Assembly: GCA_942493095.1 (NCBI GenBank)
Contig: OW818675.1
Location: 523,406-555,405, forward strand
Length of the DNA: 32,000 nt
Direction: 5' to 3'
Source: Candidatus Electronema halotolerans
GTDB taxonomy: Bacteria; Desulfobacterota; Desulfobulbia; Desulfobulbales; Desulfobulbaceae
The position numbers and the translations under genes were made by a program. Positions 7,780 to 16,513 of this stretch are shown here, one piece after another. The first letter of the stretch is position 1; each line of letters begins with the position of its first letter. The notes under the pieces were generated by a model that ran no database searches, was not told the origin of the DNA, and saw nothing but the letters and a program-made list of their open reading frames with translations.

Positions 7780-8085
7780 ATGGCAATTCCCAAGCGGCAG
7801 ATTCTGCTCTGCCAAAGTTTCCGGGCCGCAGGCGACAAAAAAGGCATCTGCCACAAGCAGAGTGATGGTTTCCTGCAATACATTGAGGAAGAAGTGATTG
7901 ATCGTGGCTTGGACTGTCTCGTCAGTGCCACCACCTGCCTCAAACAGTGCGAAAAAGGGCCGATCATGGTGATTCAGCCGGAAAACTGGTGGTTTGGCGG
8001 GGTGAACAGCGAGGAGGTCGTTGATGCCATTCTTGACGGTCTTGAAGAGGGCGAACCAGCAGCAGACTACCTGATTTCCGACTGA
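7780..8085 (+). CDS. Thioredoxin-like [2Fe-2S] ferredoxin.
   Basis: 101 aa with Cys pattern LLCQS...GICHK...TTCLKQCEKGP and the hallmark GPIMVIQPENWWFGGV. The AAGGAGAA RBS is 6 nt upstream of the ATG. Confidence 0.8.
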   Translation: MAIPKRQILLCQSFRAAGDKKGICHKQSDGFLQYIEEEVIDRGLDCLVSATTCLKQCEKGPIMVIQPENWWFGGVNSEEVVDAILDGLEEGEPAADYLISD

Positions 8086-8537
8086 TGAGCGCATCTGCCC
8101 GCATCCGCCGGGCCGAGCAGGCCGACATTCCTGCGTTGCTCGACCTGCTGCAACTGCTCTTCAGCATTGAGAAAGATTTTGTTTTCAATGCGGCCAAACA
8201 GGAGCGCGGACTGCGCCTGCTCTTGGCCGAGAGCAGGGCAGCAGTCATGGTTGCCGCGCAGGACCGGCAGGTGATCGGTCTATGCAGCGGGCAGCTCCTG
8301 ATTTCCACAGCCCAAGGCGGGCTGTCAGCGCTGGTGGAAGATGTCGTTGTCGCGCCCGCTTGGCAGGGCAAAGGAATCGGCAGGCAGCTTTTGGCAGCAA
8401 TCAGTGCATGGGCGGTCAGTCATGGCGCGAGCCGGGTGCAGCTCCTTGCCGACCAGAATAACACCCCGGCCTCAGCCTTTTACCAAAAAACAGGCTTTCA
8501 AACGACAGCAATGATCTGTCTGCGGAAAATAATATGA
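8085..8537 (+). CDS. GNAT-family N-acetyltransferase.
   Basis: 150 aa with acetyl-CoA motif A VVVAPAWQGKGIGRQLL and C-terminal NTPASAFYQKTGF. Its start overlaps the ferredoxin stop (TGATG). Confidence 0.85.
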   Translation: MSASARIRRAEQADIPALLDLLQLLFSIEKDFVFNAAKQERGLRLLLAESRAAVMVAAQDRQVIGLCSGQLLISTAQGGLSALVEDVVVAPAWQGKGIGRQLLAAISAWAVSHGASRVQLLADQNNTPASAFYQKTGFQTTAMICLRKII

Positions 8538-8965
8538 AGATTCAGCCTTTGCAGAGCTTGCAGCCAATCAGTGGCTGGGAGGATTTTTTCCGGCACGGCC
8601 AGGGCTATCTGAACGCCGCTGTCGGAGCGCACCGCAAGCAGGTGCAGGCCTTCACACCGGAGATTCTCTATAACTTGGCGGCAATGGCGATTGAGAAATT
8701 TGTCATGGCCGCCCTGATGCGGCACGGGGCCATGCCCTACAACCATACTATGGTGGATTTGGTTGAAGCGATGGAGAAAACCTTTCCGGGCAGACTGGGG
8801 CAAATTCAAGACGACCTGCTCCGTTTAGATAAATACCAGGAAATCTGCGATCTGGACGGCTTCAAGATCAGTCCGCCAAAGCCGGAGGAAATCCCGGCCA
8901 TGCTGGAAGTGGCAGAGAAGCTGCGGGAGCTGGTTCTTGGAGAGCTGCTTGCCTGCAACGTATAA
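8534..8965 (+). CDS. HEPN-domain-like protein.
   Basis: 143 aa. The helix pair YNLAAMAIEKFVMAALMRHGAMPYNHTMVDLVEAM follows the classic HEPN pattern (A.EK..KA.L...G..P...H.LV.L). The start overlaps the GNAT stop (ATGA). There is no clean Rx4-6H RNase motif. Confidence 0.55.
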   Translation: MKIQPLQSLQPISGWEDFFRHGQGYLNAAVGAHRKQVQAFTPEILYNLAAMAIEKFVMAALMRHGAMPYNHTMVDLVEAMEKTFPGRLGQIQDDLLRLDKYQEICDLDGFKISPPKPEEIPAMLEVAEKLRELVLGELLACNV

Positions 8966-8994
8966 AAAACAAACAGATAAATCTGGTTGCGCAG

Positions 8995-9294
8995 ATGACA
9001 GAACGAAAGCTCGGTGTGGTCAAAGAAATCGTCGAAGAGGTGGGCATGGGCATTTCCCATGTCTATGAAGATTTGGTCTTTCTCGACCATAACGCCATCT
9101 TGCTCCAGTTCACCGATGACAGCAGCAAACTCCTGCTGCGCATCAACCGCGAGGCGGATCAAGAGACGGCTGCCAGTGGTGCGGCTCTGCTCAAGCAGGC
9201 GGGGTTGGCGCGGGAAATGCAGTTTGTGGAAAGCGGCAGCTATGCGCTGGCCCAGGACGGGCCGGAACAGGTGCGGATTGAGTTTTTCTCCTGA
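8995..9294 (+). CDS. Hypothetical protein.
   Basis: A 99-aa ORF with protein-like composition, in operon orientation. The alternative frame (9014..9304) is Arg/Ser/Cys-rich junk. No family recognised and the RBS is weak. Confidence 0.45.
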   Translation: MTERKLGVVKEIVEEVGMGISHVYEDLVFLDHNAILLQFTDDSSKLLLRINREADQETAASGAALLKQAGLAREMQFVESGSYALAQDGPEQVRIEFFS

Positions 9295-9334
9295 GTTGTT
9301 TTAACGAAAATAATGCCTGAACGGAGGTCGGATC

Positions 9335-9556
9335 ATGGCAAAAGCAGATGTGGAAAAATTGCTGGAAGCAGGCGGCAAGGATAAGAAGATCAAGGCAAAA
9401 TATGATGTTCCGGCCACCAAGGAAGAGTTTGTCGCCTTGGCAGCGCAGGACGGCTACAACTTCACCGTGGAGGAGCTGGAAGCTGTGCTCAAAGAATCCG
9501 GCGATGTCTTTGAAAAATACGGCAATCCGCCTAAACGGTCAATTTGGTGGACATAG
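9335..9556 (+). CDS. Nif11-domain small protein.
   Basis: 73 aa. MAKADVEKLLEAGGKDKKIKAKYDVPATKEEFVALAAQDGYNFTVEEL fits the Nif11 N-terminal domain pattern. The GGAGG RBS is 7 nt upstream. A strong terminator follows. Confidence 0.75.
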   Translation: MAKADVEKLLEAGGKDKKIKAKYDVPATKEEFVALAAQDGYNFTVEELEAVLKESGDVFEKYGNPPKRSIWWT

Positions 9557-9562
9557 AAAGAC

Positions 9563-9600
9563 AAAAGAAGGATGCAAGTAATGCATCCTTCTTTTTGTTT
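9563..9600. terminator. Bidirectional rho-independent terminator.
   Basis: Perfect 12-bp stem AAGAAGGATGCA (9565-9576) / TGCATCCTTCTT (9582-9593) with a 5-nt loop. A-rich 5' flank and TTTGTTT 3' flank. It sits between the convergent genes ending at 9556 (+) and 9652 (-). Confidence 0.8.
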
Positions 9601-9651
9601 GACAGGATAGGCAATCTAAATCATTAGATTGATTTTAGCTGATTGCCTTTT

Positions 9652-10209
9652 TTACATTGGAATGCAGAACAACCTCTGGTCGAACGATTCCTTGCCGAAT
9701 ATGTACCAAACACTTCCTGCTGCACTCAAGCAGATTTTATGCACATCGAATGACAATGTCAAAGAAAGATCAGCACCCGCCAATCCTACATTTGGGTGAA
9801 AACCAACAGTTACGTTATGACTGTCAAAATTGTATGATGTGCACCATACTTTGGCACCTGCAACAATAAGACACACTTTAAGCTCTGCTTGCCAGTCTGA
9901 TGGCGTTCCGCATACCTTTAATTCTCCCCCTATTCCTACGATTTTATACAGAGAAACTTCAAATGGTTGGGTTTTGCAGTTGTCAACAGTTTTCAGTGCG
10001 CCAAGAACAGGCATACGAGCTGCTGCTGCACGAACCATAGGAGCTGCTGTGGCAGGCTCTGCCGCATCTCTGCTAATAGCAGAGAGAATCTGCTCTTTAA
10101 GCTTGTCAACTGGCATGTCAGCATGCGCTGCCATCATCTGCCAATCTTTCTCGCTAACATGAGAAGATACAGCTTGTAATGTATCCTTTTCCATTTTTAC
10201 ATCCTCCAT
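9652..10209 (-). CDS. Orphan hypothetical protein encoded in AT-rich island A.
   Basis: A 185-aa ORF that is visibly lower in GC than its neighbours. The second ATG (10194) has a GGAGGA RBS and may be the true start. The acidic/helical N-terminus is followed by a beta-rich, Cys-containing C-terminal half. No family recognised. Confidence 0.6.
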   Translation of the reverse strand: MEDVKMEKDTLQAVSSHVSEKDWQMMAAHADMPVDKLKEQILSAISRDAAEPATAAPMVRAAAARMPVLGALKTVDNCKTQPFEVSLYKIVGIGGELKVCGTPSDWQAELKVCLIVAGAKVWCTSYNFDSHNVTVGFHPNVGLAGADLSLTLSFDVHKICLSAAGSVWYIFGKESFDQRLFCIPM

Positions 10210-10330
10210 GTAATTTGTTAACTTCCATCCAAGATAGATGGAATAATTTTGTCCATTATAATTTGGCTAAAAAAAAATCAATAAAAAAGTATTGTTAGGA
10301 ATAATTATTATTCTTGAAAGTAGGCAAAAA

Positions 10331-10447
10331 TATAGTGTTGCAGGTTTCCGAAGCAGAGTGTTTTAAGGAGTGGTTCGCATTCAATTTGCTAATTTTACTT
10401 GCTTAATATTGGCACAGGCTAACGTAACAGAAAGTTGCAACACTATA
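10331..10447. repeat. Perfect 12-bp inverted repeat enclosing a 93-nt AT-rich segment.
   Basis: TATAGTGTTGCA (10331-10342) and TGCAACACTATA (10436-10447). The pairing extends by TTTC/GAAA after a 2-nt mismatch. It lies at the right edge of island A. Confidence 0.7.
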
Positions 10448-10485
10448 GGTTCAGTTTATTAAAAAAAATGAAGAATGGAATAGGC

Positions 10486-10592
10486 ACGGCTACAACTTCA
10501 CCGTAGAGGAGCTGGAAGCGGTGCTCAAAGAATCCGGCGATGTCTTTGAAAAATACGGCAATCCGCCCAAGCGTTCCATCTGGTGGACCTGA
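10486..10592 (+). pseudogene. Start-less duplicate of the last 35 codons of the Nif11-like gene.
   Basis: Encodes (H)GYNFTVEELEAVLKESGDVFEKYGNPPKRSIWWT*, identical to the C-terminus of the 9335..9556 product. There is an in-frame TAG at 10447-10449 and no ATG/GTG/TTG between it and the repeat. Confidence 0.7.
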
Positions 10593-10621
10593 GCGGAACC
10601 AGAGGCAGCAGGGCGGCTCAA

Positions 10622-11728
10622 TCATCTTGCCGGGATGCTCCGGGATGCCTTGACCGCCGCTGCTGCCGCATCATGAAACCAAGGCCGGAACTGGCGGATT
10701 CTGCTGTTCTCCCGGCTCGGATGAACCCGGTTGCTGAGGAGAATGACAATCAGCTCCTGCTCCGGGTCGATCCAGAATGAAGTGCCGGTGAAGCCCAGAT
10801 GACCGACACTTTGGGCGGAGAAATGCCTGCCGCTGCTGGATGAGCCGGGCGTGGGTCTGTCAAAGCCGAGACACCAGGTCTGGCCGGAGAGCTGCGGCTG
10901 CAAGCCTTGGGACAGAAAAGCCGCCCAAGAGCTGGCCACGGCTTCCCCTCTCTCACCCTGCCAATTATCCAAAATCACCCCGCAGAGCTGCAACACCCCG
11001 CTGACTGTGCCGAACAATCCCGCATGACCGGCAAGGCCGTTTACGAGCCAGCAATGCTCATCATGCACCTCACCCCGCATCATCCTGCCCCGCCATGAGC
11101 ACTGCTCTGTGGCGGCGCAGTTCTGCCTCTGCTCCACGCTGACCTGACAGAGCAGCTCTTTTCCCAGCCCCAGCGGCCCCGCAATCCGCTCCTGAAAATT
11201 GGCGGCCAAATCCTTGTCAGTCAACTCCTCCGCTATCCACCCCAGCAGAATGAAGCCAAGATCGCTGTACAAACAGCGGCTCTCCGGCGCATAGGCCATT
11301 GGCTCGTTGAGAATGAGACGAAGCAACCGCGCCTTGTGGTCCGTTTTTTGCACCGGCGCAAAGGTCTTGAACCACGGCTGATAAGCGGCCAGCCCGGATG
11401 AATGCGAGAGCAGCCTGCGCAGCGTGATCTGCTGTTTGTCCGGCGGCACATCAGGCAGCAGATCAGCCAGCCTGTCTTCCAGCCGGAGCCGCCCTTCCGC
11501 AAAAAAATCGTAGAAAAGCAAGGTGGTCGAAAGGGCCTTGCTCAACGAGGCCAGATCAAACAGGGTGGCCGCCGTCACCAGGGACTGGTCGCGGCTGTCC
11601 ATGACTCCGGCCCACGCTGTCCACGTCTGCCGGGCCGGGCCAGTGCCGCAGGCGACTGCCGCTGCCGCGCCGGGAAAAACCTGTTCGGCAAGCCCCTGCC
11701 GCAGGAGCCGCTGTAGTGTCTGGATCAT
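10622..11728 (-). CDS. Serine hydrolase of the beta-lactamase / penicillin-binding-protein (class C-like) family.
   Basis: 368 aa with SxxK motif FDLASLSKAL, a YSDLGFILLG (YxN-like) motif and a late HLGFTGTSFWIDP (K/HTG-like) motif. Confidence 0.85.
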   Translation of the reverse strand: MIQTLQRLLRQGLAEQVFPGAAAAVACGTGPARQTWTAWAGVMDSRDQSLVTAATLFDLASLSKALSTTLLFYDFFAEGRLRLEDRLADLLPDVPPDKQQITLRRLLSHSSGLAAYQPWFKTFAPVQKTDHKARLLRLILNEPMAYAPESRCLYSDLGFILLGWIAEELTDKDLAANFQERIAGPLGLGKELLCQVSVEQRQNCAATEQCSWRGRMMRGEVHDEHCWLVNGLAGHAGLFGTVSGVLQLCGVILDNWQGERGEAVASSWAAFLSQGLQPQLSGQTWCLGFDRPTPGSSSSGRHFSAQSVGHLGFTGTSFWIDPEQELIVILLSNRVHPSRENSRIRQFRPWFHDAAAAAVKASRSIPAR

Positions 11729-11749
11729 GTTTGAGGGTCATATTTGGGT

Positions 11750-11894
11750 GTTGAAAACTTGTTGAAAACCTGTTGATAACTTGTTGATAACTTCCTGCCG
11801 CCGCTGCCGCCCGCCGAGTTATCAACAAGTTATTAACAAAGTTATCAACACCTCTTTTACTGAAAAACAAGCAGGTTGCGTTAGTTTTCAACAG
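11750..11894. repeat. Phased array of 11-bp repeats forming a long imperfect palindrome. The 9-mer cores resemble DnaA boxes.
   Basis: Four tandem units: GTTGAAAACTT, GTTGAAAACCT, GTTGATAACTT, GTTGATAACTT (11750-11793). A 24-nt GC-only spacer follows. Then come inverted units GTTATCAACAA, GTTATTAACAA, GTTATCAACAC (11818-11851) and a distal GTTTTCAACAG (11884-11894). TTATCAACA matches 8 of 9 positions of the TTATCCACA box. A nearly pure A/T tract follows at 11921-11946. Confidence 0.8.
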
Positions 11895-11958
11895 GTGCGG
11901 CCCGTCCCAACAACAATAGGTTATATATATACAATATATTTATTAAGGCCGCTCCGAC

Positions 11959-12048
11959 CTGTGGAAAACTGCGTCATAAAAAAAGCCCGTGACCAAAAAG
12001 ATCACGGGCTGCGAACATCTTTGAACGAAAAACGGTCAGCGGCTCACC
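11959..12048. repeat. Direct repeat copy 1 (DR1), a terminator-containing ~90-nt segment.
   Basis: Aligns by eye with 13053-13144, roughly 85-90% identical with a few 1-2-nt indels. A further partial copy of its first ~10-20 nt (GGAAAACTG/GAAACTGCGT) lies at 12068-12086. Confidence 0.75.
11978..12010 (-). terminator. Rho-independent terminator downstream of the DUF559-fusion gene.
   Basis: Minus strand: AGCCCGTGA-loop-TCACGGGCT (9-bp stem) followed by a U-run (the A-run 11978-11984 on the plus strand). Confidence 0.7.
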
Positions 12049-13052
12049 GTAGCTGAAAAAAAGAGGCGGAAAACTGGAAACTGCGTTGGAGATTCAAATT
12101 ATCGTTATATATCAAACAGATTCAGTTGAACAAAACCGGGTTCTTTCAAATTGATTTTTTGCTGGGCAGACTCACCTTCTTTCAAACCGCCTAATCTGTT
12201 GATATTTTTTACTATTGTCGGGACACAATATTCGGATGCGCTTTCTTTTACTTGGAGGGTATTAAAACGAAGCACTCTCCAGCCTTCTGTTTTCAAATTA
12301 TTGTCACGAACATTATCTTTTGCGGCTTGTTGACGATTTGCGTGCCAAAAGTCTCCGTCTGTTTCAACGTCAATCTTTCCTGATTGACAATATATTGCAA
12401 AATCCAAAGCATAGTGTCTGTTATTAACATTTACAAACTCCTGACGTTCCGCATTTATCTGCAACCGTTTAAATTCTGACCATAAACGGTCTTCAAGGGG
12501 ACTTGCATCGAAAAGATCATTTATTTCAACTGCTGTGACAAACTTTTCCCATGTTGTCGAAATGAACACTAATCGTCTGTAACGCCTGCTGAGAATAGGT
12601 TTTGGTAAACGTTTAAGGGGCGGATCGATAAAAATTTGGTAATACCTTTTCCTGCTTTTTACATTAGCAGGTTCATCAGGAAAAAGCTGCCATCTGTAAG
12701 CCTTTTTGATATCTAATATTTTCGCGTAATAGTTTATCGCATAAGCATCTTTGCCAAAGACTTTCGTCATGTAAAACGCTATAAAGCAAGGAGGCCAACG
12801 CTTTTTCAGCCATTTCTCAACGCTGCTGACAGGAATCCGATACCAATGCTTTTCATTCACAATGGAAAAATCATGCAAATTGTTAATTATTGCCACAAGC
12901 ACTTCGTTATGCAAATCGTTATCCATTACAACAGCTTCAAATGAAGGCCTTCAACAGCAGCCAAGTTAATCCGCGCATCTGCCCCCTCCACGCGAGAACT
13001 TCAGCACTTTCCGAAAAATCATCCAAGGCATGGAATTTCAGACAGTACCAAT
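12049..13052. mobile_element. AT-rich single-gene insert (island B), bracketed by ~90-nt direct repeats.
   Basis: Visibly low-GC DNA with one gene, lying between DR1 (11959-12048) and DR2 (13053-13144). No recombinase gene. Confidence 0.5.
12105..12926 (-). CDS. Two-domain protein: an uncharacterised N-terminal domain fused to a C-terminal DUF559 / Vsr-like (PD-(D/E)xK superfamily) endonuclease domain.
   Basis: 273 aa. The C-terminus HYALDFAIYCQSGKIDVETDGDFWHANRQQAAKDNVRDNNLKTEGWRVLRF is the DUF559/Vsr-type motif set. I do not recognise the N-terminal ~150 aa (HWYRIPVSS...PPCFIAFYMTKVFG...). Codon usage is strongly AT-biased relative to neighbours. Confidence 0.75.
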   Translation of the reverse strand: MDNDLHNEVLVAIINNLHDFSIVNEKHWYRIPVSSVEKWLKKRWPPCFIAFYMTKVFGKDAYAINYYAKILDIKKAYRWQLFPDEPANVKSRKRYYQIFIDPPLKRLPKPILSRRYRRLVFISTTWEKFVTAVEINDLFDASPLEDRLWSEFKRLQINAERQEFVNVNNRHYALDFAIYCQSGKIDVETDGDFWHANRQQAAKDNVRDNNLKTEGWRVLRFNTLQVKESASEYCVPTIVKNINRLGGLKEGESAQQKINLKEPGFVQLNLFDI

Positions 13053-13144
13053 CTGTGAAAAACTGCGCCATGAAAAAAGCCCGTGACCAGAAGATCACGG
13101 GCTGCGAAACATCTCTGAACGAAAAAGCTCGTCAGCGGCTCACC
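13053..13144. repeat. Direct repeat copy 2 (DR2), covering the stop codon, 3' UTR and terminator of the YTD-type operon.
   Basis: Aligns with 11959-12048. It overlaps the TGA (13140-13142) of the 57-aa ORF. Confidence 0.75.
13073..13103 (-). terminator. Rho-independent terminator of the tusA-dsrE-like operon.
   Basis: Minus strand: AGCCCGTGA-loop-TCACGGGCT followed by TTTTTT. It lies about 40 nt downstream of the stop at 13140. Confidence 0.75.
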
Positions 13145-13313
13145 ACCAGCAGACAGTCTTGTCAGCGGCGAAAATCTTGCTCACCAGCTCATCGTAGTTG
13201 GGATTTTCCTCATAGAGACGGAATTCATCCGCCTCCCGGTCACGGTTGAGAATCTCAACCAAGGTCGTGACCACCTCGTTCGGCTCGGAACGATACACTT
13301 GCAGCATTTTCAT
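13140..13313 (-). CDS. Small conserved-hypothetical-type ORF (57 aa), last gene of the tusA/dsrE-like operon.
   Basis: Below the ORF-track size cutoff. The ATG at 13313 is preceded by AGGAGGAGAA. My translation is MKMLQVYRSEPNEVVTTLVEILNRDREADEFRLYEENPNYDELVSKIFAADKTVCWW*. It starts 15 nt after the upstream gene's stop. Confidence 0.6.
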   Translation of the reverse strand: MKMLQVYRSEPNEVVTTLVEILNRDREADEFRLYEENPNYDELVSKIFAADKTVCWW

Positions 13314-13328
13314 GATGATCTTCTCCTC

Positions 13329-13676
13329 CTATTCCGCGCAGGCTGGCGGCGGCTCATTGGTCTGCTTGGACAGGCCGTAGGGAATGATGATATCAGCCTC
13401 GCGCATTCTCTCGCCCAGGGCCTGAAGATCGATTTCAGTCAGAGACACGTCCTCCGGCAGATCATCCGGCGCAGGCGCGCCGCAGGTGAAGACCTCGCCC
13501 TCCATGTCGGCAATCCAAGCGATGTTCTCAGCCATGTAGCTGGAGAACTTCGGAAATTCTCCGTTCAAGATCACCGGGTAGCCGTAGTGGTTCTCTACGG
13601 CCAGCCCCAGTGCCGAACGGATGCCGTCGTTGTACATCCGGTTGGCGATCAGCACATATACTTTCAGCGATTCCAT
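13329..13676 (-). CDS. DsrE/DsrF-like family protein.
   Basis: 115 aa. The opening MESLKVYVLIANRMYNDGIRSALGLAV resembles a DsrE/F-fold N-terminus. AGGAGG RBS. It sits in the tusA/dsrE context. Confidence 0.65.
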   Translation of the reverse strand: MESLKVYVLIANRMYNDGIRSALGLAVENHYGYPVILNGEFPKFSSYMAENIAWIADMEGEVFTCGAPAPDDLPEDVSLTEIDLQALGERMREADIIIPYGLSKQTNEPPPACAE

Positions 13677-13689
13677 AGCAGGGGCCTCC

Positions 13690-14022
13690 TTATAAGACGA
13701 TGTACTTGCCGCATTCGTCCAGCAGCGCGCCGTGGAATGCCTGAGTTCGCATCTGCTTGGCGGTCAGTCCGGCAGGAATGTCCTTAGCCGAGTCATAGCC
13801 CTCGCAGGTGTAGCTGTCCGCGCAGATGGCCAAGTTGTCCTCGCCGCACAGCTCGGCCAGCGGCTGAAAGCGGGGGTCCTTGGTCAGATGAACGGATTTG
13901 TAGGTAAAGAAAATCATCGGCTTTTTGCCAGCTCTTGCCGCAGCTTGGGCAATTCCCACCACATGCGTCATCTGCTGGGGCGAGGTGACAAAAATCGCCA
14001 GTTTGTCTGGATCAGCAGCCAT
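13690..14022 (-). CDS. DsrE-like sulfur-relay protein.
   Basis: 110 aa: KLAIFVTSPQQMTHVVGIAQAAARAGKKPMIFFTYKSV...AICADSYTCEG. AGGAGG RBS. Confidence 0.7.
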   Translation of the reverse strand: MAADPDKLAIFVTSPQQMTHVVGIAQAAARAGKKPMIFFTYKSVHLTKDPRFQPLAELCGEDNLAICADSYTCEGYDSAKDIPAGLTAKQMRTQAFHGALLDECGKYIVL

Positions 14023-14071
14023 TTGGCTTATCCTCCTTGGTTATGGCTTTGCAAAGCGGTTGCGGAAAGAA

Positions 14072-14329
14072 TCAGCCCTTCTGAACAAAAAAGCTCATGT
14101 AGCCGGTCTCTTCCTTCTCGCCCAGATACTCATGACCGGCCCGGGCGCACCAGCCAGGAATGTCGTTGCGGGAACCAGGATCAGTGCCGTCAACCTGGAG
14201 GATTTCTCCAGTATTGATCTTGTTGATTTCCTTTTTGGTTTTCAACAGCGGCATTGGGCAGCTCAAACCTTTCGCATCCAGAACCGCAGCCGGGGTCAGG
14301 CCCTCAGGGGCTTTTTTCACATCGCTCAT
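14072..14329 (-). CDS. tusA: TusA-family sulfurtransferase.
   Basis: 85 aa with the diagnostic LDAKGLSCPMPLLKTKK (CPxP) motif. AAGGAGAA RBS. Confidence 0.9.
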   Translation of the reverse strand: MSDVKKAPEGLTPAAVLDAKGLSCPMPLLKTKKEINKINTGEILQVDGTDPGSRNDIPGWCARAGHEYLGEKEETGYMSFFVQKG

Positions 14330-14784
14330 TGTGCATTCTCCTTATCGTGAATGAAAAAAAAAGAGTGGTTATTCCTTGTGCTGAACTGCCTTTGATCAGG
14401 CCTTTTTTTCAGCTCATCAGCTAACTGAGATTTGTTCTCTATAACGAATGCAAACCTGTCTGTCAAGCTATTTCCTGCCGGAACGCCTTTGGCAGCCGGA
14501 AGGTCATCTTGTTTGAATAGCAGGGAAAAATAAACAACCCGTTGTCTATCCGCTTGATCTGGCGGCTGATTCCCTGAAAAAAATCTTGCAGGAATGTCAG
14601 ACTTTCGCAAACCCTGTCCGCCTAAAATCCTCAAGAAAAAAACTGTACAAACAGGACGGAAAATTATAAAATATTTTTCCGACAATTCAGCGCCAACAGA
14701 CTGCCTCTGCTTTTTTGGCGGAGACAGTTTATGAACAGACTGTATAACTGTCGGAACCTCAAGAGAAAAGAGGATGGAGAGACT

Positions 14785-16110
14785 ATGAGTGAATCAAGTT
14801 TTGTCGGCAAGACAAGAAACCTGTACAAGCAGGTCTGCGAGACTGAGTGGGAGGCCAACATCACCGGCGTGATTGTCGCCCTGCTCAGTATCCTGCTGAT
14901 GGTCTGGTGGCGGCCTTGGGGCGCAGTGGGGGCGATCCGCAACTGGGGCGACTGGCTGCTCTCCTTTGTCGGCGGCGCAACTCCCAAGTCAATTTTCATT
15001 GACTCCGGCTCCGTGATCGGCATCGGCTTTCTCGGCGGAGCCTTTCTCTCCGCCTTTTTGGCCGGACAGTTCGCCTTCCGTTTTCCACCCTACCGCGAGG
15101 CGGTCAAAGGCGCAATCGCCGGAGTGCTGATGGGAGTCGGCTCGGCCTTGGCTGGCGGCTGCAATGTCGGCGGCATGTACAACGCCCTTGGCAATCTGGC
15201 CGCCAACGGCTTCAGCATGTGGCTGGGAATCGTCGCCGGAGTCCTCCTCGGTCTCTGGCTGATCTACAAGGAAATGGAGCATATTTCCTGGGGCGACAAC
15301 GGCGCGTGGACTGTTGACCTGCCCCGCGAGCTGCAAACCCTGCTCGGCCTGCTGACCTTTTTCGCCCTGCTTGCCGGAGCGCGCTGGTACAGCAGCTACA
15401 GCGGCGAGGACAACGCTGACATCATCACCTCGCTGTCCGGGGTGCTGCTGCTGGCCGCAGGCATCGGCTATGCCATGCACCGGGGCCGCTGGTGCATGAT
15501 TCAGGGCTTCCGCGAGCCGCACATGACGGGCGACTGCACCTTGGCCAAATCTGTGGCGCTGTCCATTTTCGTCCTTGCCATTGGCGGGGCAGTGGTCAAA
15601 TATGCCGTACCGGTCAAAGGCGCGGCAGTGCTCAATCCTGCCTATTATGTGCGCGGCACCTTTGGCTGGGGCGGCGTGCTGGGCGGCTTCCTCTTTGGAA
15701 TAGGCGGCATGTTCGCAGGCGGCTGCGGCTCCGGCACCCTCTGGCGGGTCGGCGAAGGTCAGCTCAAGCTCTGGATTGTCGTGCCCTTCTTCGGCATAGC
15801 CAATTCCCTGATGACCAAATGGTTCAGCATGGATGTCGAGGTCAGCGGCAATGGCCTCAAGAGCCTGATGGCTCAGGCAAAACTTGGTCTGATCGGCTAT
15901 GATGTTGACGAGGTCAAGGAAGCGATTGCAACAGGCGGCAGTCTGACAGTCTCCGGCATTGAGAAGGCCGGGTATCTGGGCCGATACATCTACATGCCCG
16001 ATGCCATCGGCTTTGGCTGGACCTTAACCATCATCACCTTTATGATGGCCCTCTGGTATGTGGTTGTGACCTGGAACGAGGAGAGCAACAAGCTGATCGT
16101 GCCCATGTGA
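14785..16110 (+). CDS. YedE/YeeE-family sulfur-compound (thiosulfate-type) transporter.
   Basis: A polytopic Gly-rich membrane protein with repeated GGCxxG motifs (ALAGGCNVGGM, FAGGCGSGTLWR). The track ORF starts at 14731. The ATG at 14785 has the better RBS (GGATGGAGAG). It is divergent from tusA. Confidence 0.85.
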   Translation: MSESSFVGKTRNLYKQVCETEWEANITGVIVALLSILLMVWWRPWGAVGAIRNWGDWLLSFVGGATPKSIFIDSGSVIGIGFLGGAFLSAFLAGQFAFRFPPYREAVKGAIAGVLMGVGSALAGGCNVGGMYNALGNLAANGFSMWLGIVAGVLLGLWLIYKEMEHISWGDNGAWTVDLPRELQTLLGLLTFFALLAGARWYSSYSGEDNADIITSLSGVLLLAAGIGYAMHRGRWCMIQGFREPHMTGDCTLAKSVALSIFVLAIGGAVVKYAVPVKGAAVLNPAYYVRGTFGWGGVLGGFLFGIGGMFAGGCGSGTLWRVGEGQLKLWIVVPFFGIANSLMTKWFSMDVEVSGNGLKSLMAQAKLGLIGYDVDEVKEAIATGGSLTVSGIEKAGYLGRYIYMPDAIGFGWTLTIITFMMALWYVVVTWNEESNKLIVPM

Positions 16111-16131
16111 TCAGCCTGCGGTCATGGATGG

Positions 16132-16171
16132 AAAAAAACGCTGCGTCCGGCAATGGCGCAGCGTTTTTTTT
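16132..16171 (+). terminator. Rho-independent terminator after the yedE-like gene.
   Basis: CGCTGCG (16139-16145) / CGCAGCG (16157-16163), flanked by an A-run and followed by T8. Confidence 0.8.
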
Positions 16172-16264
16172 GCTGAAAACGCAAAAAGAGCCTTGACTTT
16201 TCCTCCTTGCAGTGTTTGTGTTAGCGCAGGAGCTTGTTTTTTCATCAAGAAAAGGAGGGGCAAA

Positions 16265-16513
16265 ATGAAAGCGTTCTTTGGAATGACTGCTGCCGTGCTG
16301 CTGGTTGTGACGATGCTCTTTGTGGCATTGCCCGGAACTGCGATAGTTTTTTATGATACAAACTGCGAAAACAACAACGTAGTTTATACTGCAATCAGCA
16401 AAATTAAGGAAAAGTGCAGCGTAAAGAAATGTGTCTCCAATTATTTCATCAAGTCTGCAAACGCAAAAGTATCGGCCAGCGGAATGCCCCTCCCTGCTGC
16501 CCGGCCAAAATAA
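16265..16513 (+). CDS. Small secreted or membrane-anchored hypothetical protein.
   Basis: An internal ATG of track ORF 16124..16513, with an AAGGAGGGG RBS. MKAFFGMTAAVLLVVTMLFVALPG is a signal/anchor-like segment. GC is lower than the surroundings. Confidence 0.45.
   Translation: MKAFFGMTAAVLLVVTMLFVALPGTAIVFYDTNCENNNVVYTAISKIKEKCSVKKCVSNYFIKSANAKVSASGMPLPAARPK

Follow-up and report, generated by a model that had tools for sequence, protein, structure and literature searches.

How does the end of a bacterial gene come to stand twice on the same strand, about one kilobase apart, when every sense-codon difference between the two copies is silent and the AT-rich DNA between them carries a single oppositely oriented gene and no recombinase? 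The question is raised by a Nif11-domain gene of Candidatus (Ca.) Electronema halotolerans, which lies in a 32,000-nucleotide (nt) stretch of contig OW818675.1 (positions 523,406 to 555,405). The whole stretch is referred to as the window, and all positions are given in its own numbering. An earlier sequence-only reading of this DNA described the duplication and offered two explanations: the right copy may be what is left of another, once-functional Nif11-like paralog that lost its 5′ half to the insert, or the insert may have brought one copy with it out of a related genome, by Campbell-type single crossover or homology-facilitated illegitimate recombination. The comparison with related loci points to the second type of event. 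The insert is a recent and strain-specific horizontal acquisition, through which the working gene received a foreign end while its native end was displaced downstream. The features on which the argument is built are the following (L-numbers designate the contigs and loci compared).

9335 to 9556, plus strand: Nif11-domain gene, 73 amino acids (aa), intact and chimeric (PF07862, E=5e-14; the same protein is found in 5 other contigs)
9450 to 9531, plus strand: left repeat copy, host-type part (0 differences to L003, 2 to L093, at least 9 to other Electronema species)
9532 to 9556, plus strand: left repeat copy, foreign part, with the codons for PKRSIWWT and the stop codon TAG (3 differences to the nearest match, Ca. 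E. aureum L014)
9559 to 9600, not assigned to a strand: predicted bidirectional intrinsic terminator for the Nif11 gene (plus) and the cargo gene (minus), a 14-base-pair (bp) stem between A and T runs
9652 to 10194, minus strand: cargo gene, 180 aa (185 aa from an upstream ATG at 10209), with GGAGGA 8 nt before the ATG at 10194
10195 to 10485, not assigned to a strand: AT-rich region upstream of the cargo gene, 32-41% GC, with the right end of the foreign DNA ...GAATGGAATAGGC
10486 to 10592, plus strand: right repeat copy, the displaced native Nif11 3′ end (last 25 nt the same as the single gene end of L003, L093 and L004)
10622 to 11728, minus strand: beta-lactamase-family gene, in empty-site strains the native neighbour convergent with Nif11 (PF00144, E=1e-53)

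The repeat pair and its empty sites

The 107-nt direct repeat has its two copies at 9450-9556 and 10486-10592, and these form an ungapped alignment with a period of 1036 nt. The repeat is the longest two-copy direct repeat of the window and has the top identity among the repeat families for which an identity is listed. Either copy encodes the peptide GYNFTVEELEAVLKESGDVFEKYGNPPKRSIWWT followed by a stop codon. Copy 1, on the left, differs from copy 2, on the right, by eight silent third-position changes and by a swap of the stop codon (TAG/TGA), with no other change. Coordinates, period and differences had all been reported by the sequence-only reading, and realignment returns them exactly. 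The formal dN/dS analysis (nonsynonymous against synonymous divergence) that it had proposed gives, by Nei-Gojobori counting, 22.2 synonymous (S) and 79.8 nonsynonymous (N) sites with 8 synonymous (Sd) and 0 nonsynonymous (Nd) differences; the chance that 8 of 8 differences fall at synonymous sites is 5e-6. The differences are spread very unevenly: the first 82 nt hold 2 of them, whereas 8 fall in the last 25 nt (Fisher p=1e-4), these being 6 silent changes and 2 stop-codon bases. The 47 nt at 9485-9531 are identical in both copies, and the left junction or crossover lies within this stretch.

The fragment at 10486-10592 is composed of the last two bases of an Asp codon, 34 full codons and TGA. 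An in-frame TAG stands before it at 10447-10449, and no open reading frame (ORF) of at least 30 aa covers it. The earlier description of copy 2 as not conventionally translatable holds; an in-frame GTG lies within the copy and could give a product of about 23 aa at most. A dispersed multi-copy repeat, which had been named beforehand as an outcome unfavourable to that reading, was considered and rejected: the 107-nt segment is confined to Nif11 genes, in the window and in 91 related loci.

Contigs of close relatives were retrieved by exact-protein look-up. L093 is 99.0% identical to the window over 10486-16388 and 97.7% over 7822-9552, L003 is 97-99% identical on the flanks, and L004 is 86-92% identical. 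In all three a single intact Nif11 gene is followed by a gap of 26 nt and then by the convergent beta-lactamase-family gene, with nothing between. These are the empty sites for which the sequence-only reading had advised a search, and they demonstrate the polarity of the event as an insertion. A second Nif11 copy occurs in 0 of 80 related genome loci and in none of the close-strain contigs, and the cargo gene is likewise in 0 of the 80 loci.

The same comparison bears on the reading of the right copy as what is left of a tandem Nif11 paralog after the insert had overwritten its 5′ half. Nif11-family genes can occur in arrays, and silent-only divergence implies a coding history for both copies. 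Against this, strains that are 98-99% identical and have the empty site possess a single gene whose end (last 25 nt) is identical to copy 2, the divergence is concentrated in those last 25 nt, and no related locus has two copies. Intact tandem Nif11 genes, which would have argued for simple paralogs, are absent both from the 80 loci and from the close-strain contigs. The paralog remnant is accordingly rejected as extremely improbable.

An artefact of assembly, in the form of a tandem join of two strain haplotypes, deserves mention as the genome is derived from a metagenome and its flanks at this locus are mosaic (described below). The source genome is a circular metagenome-assembled genome from Nanopore and Illumina reads, with a rate of single-nucleotide polymorphisms below 0.1% (PMC10030654). 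A short-read unitig (L011, run ERR9670067) independently crosses the junction of the truncated copy and matches 9502-10550 with 100% identity; it is 1049 nt long, exactly 989 unique bases plus twice 30 nt of repeat. The insert sequence and the junction 10485/10486 are confirmed in short reads, and the linkage of both copies to the flanks rests on the long-read circular assembly. A haplotype join, moreover, would not yield the junction of AT-rich DNA with ACGGCTAC, and an artefact of this type is hardly credible.

The gene end and its cassette

Over its last 25 nt, copy 1 differs from each halotolerans-clade relative at 6-8 positions and from Ca. E. aureum at only 3. The last 8 codons of copy 1 have a GC content at third codon positions (GC3) of 0.375 and those of copy 2 one of 0.875, to be compared with 0.378 in the cargo gene and 0.71-0.74 in host genes. 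These differences, the nearest match and the GC3 values together demonstrate that the gene is chimeric, and the working Nif11 is therefore native to 9531 and foreign from 9532, where its last 8 codons and TAG begin. Copy 2 is the native end, recently displaced, untranslatable and contiguous with native downstream DNA.

The differences outside the last 25 nt, at 9469 and 9484, are strain-level polymorphisms. At 9469 and 9484 the single gene of L003 has the copy-1 alleles, while at every right-hand site it has those of copy 2, and it ends in TGA. The G at 10520 (the equivalent of 9484) is also found in the empty-site strain L093; only 10505 (A) is private to copy 2. In L093, the Nif11 position equivalent to 9470 has a nonsynonymous G-to-A change (Glu to Lys) in an otherwise strongly conserved C-terminal region.

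The six remaining differences and the stop swap are the distance between two orthologous ends, each of which was under purifying selection in its own lineage. No difference alters an amino acid, since up to the insertion each end belonged to a working Nif11 ortholog, and the copy 2 fragment is too young for decay. The earlier statement that silent-only divergence places both copies under coding selection applies to the two ends while they belonged to working orthologs; the pattern does not reflect selection on the fragment. The silent-only divergence of a dead fragment from a live copy receives in this way a concrete explanation, which also serves as a caution against inferring selection on such a fragment.

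The foreign cassette spans 9532-10485 (954 nt). Its interior has a GC content of 39%, as against 56% for the window, and contains a single minus-strand gene, in agreement with the AT-rich interior and the one opposite-strand gene described before. The terminator at 9559-9600 has a folding energy (dG) of -22.2 kcal/mol (z=-5.6); the hairpin after Nif11 is homologous in L007 and similar in L018, whereas the native Nif11 end is without a strong terminator of the cassette kind.

The cargo protein (P0001) is recorded as “hypothetical” in Ca. Electronema halotolerans. A word-index protein search finds three clusters only (its own, one at 74% and one at 45%), and an exhaustive profile search among 1.8 billion proteins finds 63 remote representatives of the family. 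The distant members are solitary genes with no neighbours in common. The protein has no sequence match in Pfam, NCBIfam or PDB. Its AlphaFold model (AF2, from a 28-sequence alignment) reaches a predicted local distance difference test score (pLDDT) of 90.7 and consists of three N-terminal helices followed by a long Cys-rich beta-meander, for which Foldseek gives no match in PDB or BFVD. The cargo belongs to a rare, uncharacterised family, which is notable for a confident predicted fold with no known structural match. Fusions occur within the family: P0021 combines it with QxW-like repeats and P0028 with a long C-terminal extension. The protein cluster of the cargo itself is recorded on one contig, of a 3.2-Mb genome, with no sign of a second copy.

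A homolog of the cargo with 74% identity (aa) is present in L006, L007 and L008, where it also stands convergent just after Nif11, with a homologous terminator and low-GC DNA; a metagenome scan for further contexts of the cargo returned the L007 contig only. Ca. Electronema sp. TJ (L075), which shares about 92-93% nucleotide identity with the L007 lineage, is empty and has Nif11, then about 330 nt, then amt. In L007 there is no 107-nt duplication, and the right end of the cassette (...ATGGAACTCAA) abuts the nucleotide just after the native stop codon. The two cassettes have a common left boundary in the last Nif11 codons and homologous right ends, and their host right junctions lie 107 nt apart. 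Homology between them fades near 10335, and their ends align again (GTTCARTTT...ATGGAAY). An inverted repeat of 18 nt with 89% complementarity (10331-10348 and 10430-10447, 81 nt apart) lies where the L007 cassette has no counterpart.

The right end of the insert in the window, TGGA-ATAG, equals the chimeric gene end TGGACATAG less one base, and the GC that follows equals the 2 nt after the native stop codon. This could be read as the remnant of a gene end. The signal is weak and at most suggestive, with a rough, uncomputed chance estimate of about 1-2%.

The absence of a recombinase between the copies, already remarked in the sequence-only reading, agrees with the domain search: no recombinase domain is found in the window ORFs scanned against Pfam, and the sole ORF of the insert belongs to no Pfam or NCBIfam family. 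The boundaries of the insert, its foreign origin and its lack of an integrase are demonstrated by these data. Several kinds of element were considered and rejected. A phage or plasmid origin of the interior finds no blastn match. An insertion sequence (IS) or a miniature inverted-repeat transposable element (MITE) disagrees with the 107-nt duplication, with the lack of terminal inverted repeats and with the lack of any sign of a second cargo copy. As integration targets, tRNA, tmRNA and Rfam-listed RNAs were looked for in the window and none was found.

A site-specific tyrosine or serine recombinase could nevertheless have acted in trans, or have been lost with a decayed island or prophage, with the Nif11 3′ end serving as bacterial attachment site (attB). 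The gene is kept intact by an element-borne silent-variant 3′ end and its displaced C-terminal fragment lies on the far side, as with the e14 element, icd and icdC (PMC13626634), and the same cargo family is found at the same gene end in two lineages. The right junction, however, is at codon 38 in the window, whereas L007 has it at the stop codon and without duplication, and this lack of conservation argues against a site-specific recombinase with a fixed core. Neither the insert nor the scanned ORFs provide a recombinase, there is no phage or plasmid similarity, and a second insert nearby, which carries a DUF559 gene, uses an unrelated anchor. This explanation is considered unlikely.

Synteny with all other Electronema genomes stops at the Nif11 stop codon, after which the downstream neighbours are as follows.

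L013, L016 and L018: a low-GC convergent 280-aa lipoprotein-like gene and amt
L014 and L075: amt
L001: obg
Window: the beta-lactamase-family gene

The Nif11 3′ end is, by these gene orders, a gene-order breakpoint and an accessory-gene hot spot in Electronema.

Possible circular and linear routes of insertion

The best explanation of the locus, held with roughly even confidence, is a homology-anchored duplicative insertion by a single (Campbell-type) crossover with a small circle. The earlier suggestion that the insert brought one copy with it out of a related genome is right in its essentials: a foreign cassette recombined at the Nif11 3′ end, and empty sites exist. It needs refining in that the foreign part of copy 1 is confined to its last 25 nt.

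Under the circle model, a Nif11 of halotolerans type would have gained the foreign cassette in an earlier event in the same lineage. The circle, with about 1,036 bp, would have consisted of the 107-nt anchor and the cargo, and its anchor would itself have been chimeric, with 82 nt of halotolerans type and 25 nt of foreign type. A RecA-type single crossover between circle and chromosome, within the 47-82-nt identical stretch, would leave Nif11 intact and its protein unchanged, with the last codons supplied by the cassette, and would push the native 107 nt downstream as a dead fragment. As the first 82 nt of both copies are of halotolerans type and the anchor is chimeric, at least two recombination events are required, under this route as under the linear one discussed below. 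Both the circular intermediate and the action of host homologous recombination we infer from this arrangement of alleles and junctions.

The identical core of 47 nt at 9485-9531 should be long enough for a RecA-type exchange. When a circle integrates by one crossover, the usual product is a duplicated anchor. The phase of the alleles relative to L003 is exactly reciprocal, as one crossover predicts; relative to L093, only 10505 bears on phase. When illegitimate events were selected in E. coli, most of them were duplications of anchors of 109-950 bp produced by the single crossover of a circle (PMC3240628). The circle is rated slightly ahead of a linear one-sided route because the DUF559 insert nearby has the same topology.

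Several points weigh against the circle. No circular form has been observed, and the short-read unitig fits the circular and the integrated forms alike. The reciprocity is thin, since the G at 10520 also occurs in L093 and leaves only 10505 (A) as a donor mark in copy 2. The junction 10485/10486 requires one illegitimate joining for the circle to form. At 9526 the window has T and every freshwater Electronema sampled has C, and if the donor was like freshwater Electronema the earlier left junction may have formed on about 5 nt (CCGCC). Finally, the mosaic flanks are more directly explained by a linear event from donor to recipient.

Such a linear event would be of the type known as homology-facilitated illegitimate recombination (HFIR). 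A donor fragment would have recombined by homology upstream, and its far end would have been joined illegitimately at codon 38 of the recipient Nif11. The donor would be a member of the halotolerans clade with a clean insertion like that of L007, the fragment would end 2 nt past the cargo, and copy 1 would come entirely from the donor and copy 2 entirely from the recipient. This route is regarded as a close rival, rated slightly behind the circle.

The flanks give it its most direct argument. Over 8976-9531 there is 1 difference between the window and L003, compared with 9 to L093; over 10568-10662 the counts are 0 to L093 and 6 to L003 (Fisher p=0.01 for the contrast). The mosaic therefore changes exactly at the insert, being L003-like upstream and L093-like immediately downstream, and copy 2 has the L093 allele at 10520. 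The whole region, however, is a patchwork of short recombination tracts, and the mosaic may be a coincidence. The end of the cargo, TGGA-ATAG and GC, resembles a decayed gene end with the 2 nt after the native stop, and L007 provides a clean insertion of the same cassette type; yet the corresponding clean arrangement (Nif11, cargo, ...TGGAATAG, GCGGAACC, beta-lactamase-family gene) has not been observed among halotolerans-clade strains. For 3′-end displacement in type VI secretion (T6SS) loci and in Rhs loci, HFIR has been put forward (PMC5361080). It normally deletes recipient DNA, which is here duplicated, and it usually operates on 3-10 bp of microhomology (PMC3240628). At the junction in question (...ATAGGC/ACGGCTAC, compared with ...GCAGG/ACGGCTAC in the host) only AGG is held in common, with an offset of 1 nt. 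A further coincidence would be needed for two neighbouring inserts each to duplicate an anchor of about 100 nt.

The second insert and known systems

The second insert lies 1.4 kb from the first and has the same topology.

11959 to 13144, minus strand: second insert, DUF559, 39% GC, with repeats of about 90 nt on both sides
12105 to 12926, minus strand: DUF559/REase_MTES_1575 endonuclease-like gene, the single gene of the insert

Its repeats (11959-12048 and 13053-13144) are 88% identical with 3 indels and copy the stop codon and the terminator of a 57-aa gene at 13140-13313. L093, L094 and L097 have the insert, which is present in every close strain seen and accordingly predates the one at Nif11. 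Its empty site is found in Ca. Electronema sp. KV (L108), and the distal repeat copy adjoins native downstream DNA. The DUF559 family is very widespread, with 60-65% identity across phyla. NCBI records of Ca. E. halotolerans and Ca. Electrothrix gigas give the conserved 57-aa protein (13140-13313, minus strand) the name GNAT family N-acetyltransferase. This annotation is probably wrong, because the protein has no Pfam match and 57 aa are far too short for the fold.

Two anchor-plus-cargo units thus flank the same gene of the window, Nif11 with the 180-aa gene on one side and the 57-aa gene with DUF559 on the other. Other AT-rich inserts with repeats of at least 45 nt were looked for in 885 kb of related loci, and only the two of the window and the DUF559 copy in L093 were found; one candidate, in L047, was rejected as it proved to be a repeated promoter-like element. 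It is conceivable, though doubtful, that anchor and cargo form a recombinase-free, self-perpetuating cassette which cycles as circles of about 1 kb by means of host RecA. Recombination between the repeat copies would free a circle carrying the 3′ end of a host gene, which could enter any related genome, and the anchor gene would never be damaged, since the circle brings a synonymous gene end and a terminator. If this were true, such cassettes would constitute a general homology-hitchhiking route of accessory-gene flux in cable bacteria.

The beta-lactamase-family gene that separates the two inserts has features of its own. Relative to L093 and L003 it contains 10 extra bases at 10630-10639 (CCGGGATGCT, a local tandem duplication), which alter the C-terminus of its product at the 3′ end of the gene (368 aa instead of 366 aa). 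Upstream of it, 11749-11850 holds an array of 11-nt repeats of the type TGTTGA(A/T)AAC, and in this region there is a near-perfect 22-nt palindrome (11771-11792 and 11817-11838). The array looks like an operator or regulator-binding region and is partly conserved in Ca. Electronema sp. KV.

The locus is a well-resolved natural case of bacterial gene gain without a dedicated mobility enzyme. Its strengths are filled and empty sites in strains that are 98-99% identical, junctions placed within a few bases and a narrowed donor lineage. The systems with which it can be compared differ from it in distinct ways.

The e14 element and phage 21 are described in PMC13626634 (where Hill et al. 1989 is cited) as integrating at the 3′ end of icd and leaving the pseudogene icdC. 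Here too the 3′ end is supplied by the element with mostly synonymous changes, and excision would restore a chimeric functional gene. The prophage e14, however, is 15 kb long, encodes an integrase of its own and has a fixed att core (PMC13626634), whereas the window insert has 0.95 kb, one non-recombinase gene and a junction whose position varies between lineages.

In the C-terminal displacement at Rhs, contact-dependent inhibition (CDI) and T6SS effector loci (PMC2935791, PMC5361080), a new gene end and a downstream gene are likewise inserted by homology, the old end is shifted downstream with a piece of conserved coding region, and the incoming DNA has a distinct GC content. The Nif11 protein, by contrast, is unchanged, both ends encode an identical peptide and there is no toxin tip. 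Nor is there any sign that the cargo is an immunity gene, being solitary in other genomes, and the window presents a single event and no array.

HFIR (PMC3240628, PMC5361080) has in common with the locus one junction in homology, the other in non-homologous DNA and about 1 kb of foreign DNA; it differs by its typical recipient deletion and its 3-10 bp of microhomology, where the window has a duplication and no clean microhomology.

The Campbell-type events of E. coli (PMC3240628) were obtained under selection, whereas the window case is natural and unselected, has a chimeric anchor and comes with no observed circle. They resemble it in the anchor duplicated on both sides (109-950 bp there, 107 nt here), in the upstream gene that remains intact and in needing no dedicated recombinase. 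The kind of event is therefore already known, as homology-anchored duplicative insertion with displacement of the 3′ end, and the window adds a further, well-documented instance of it.

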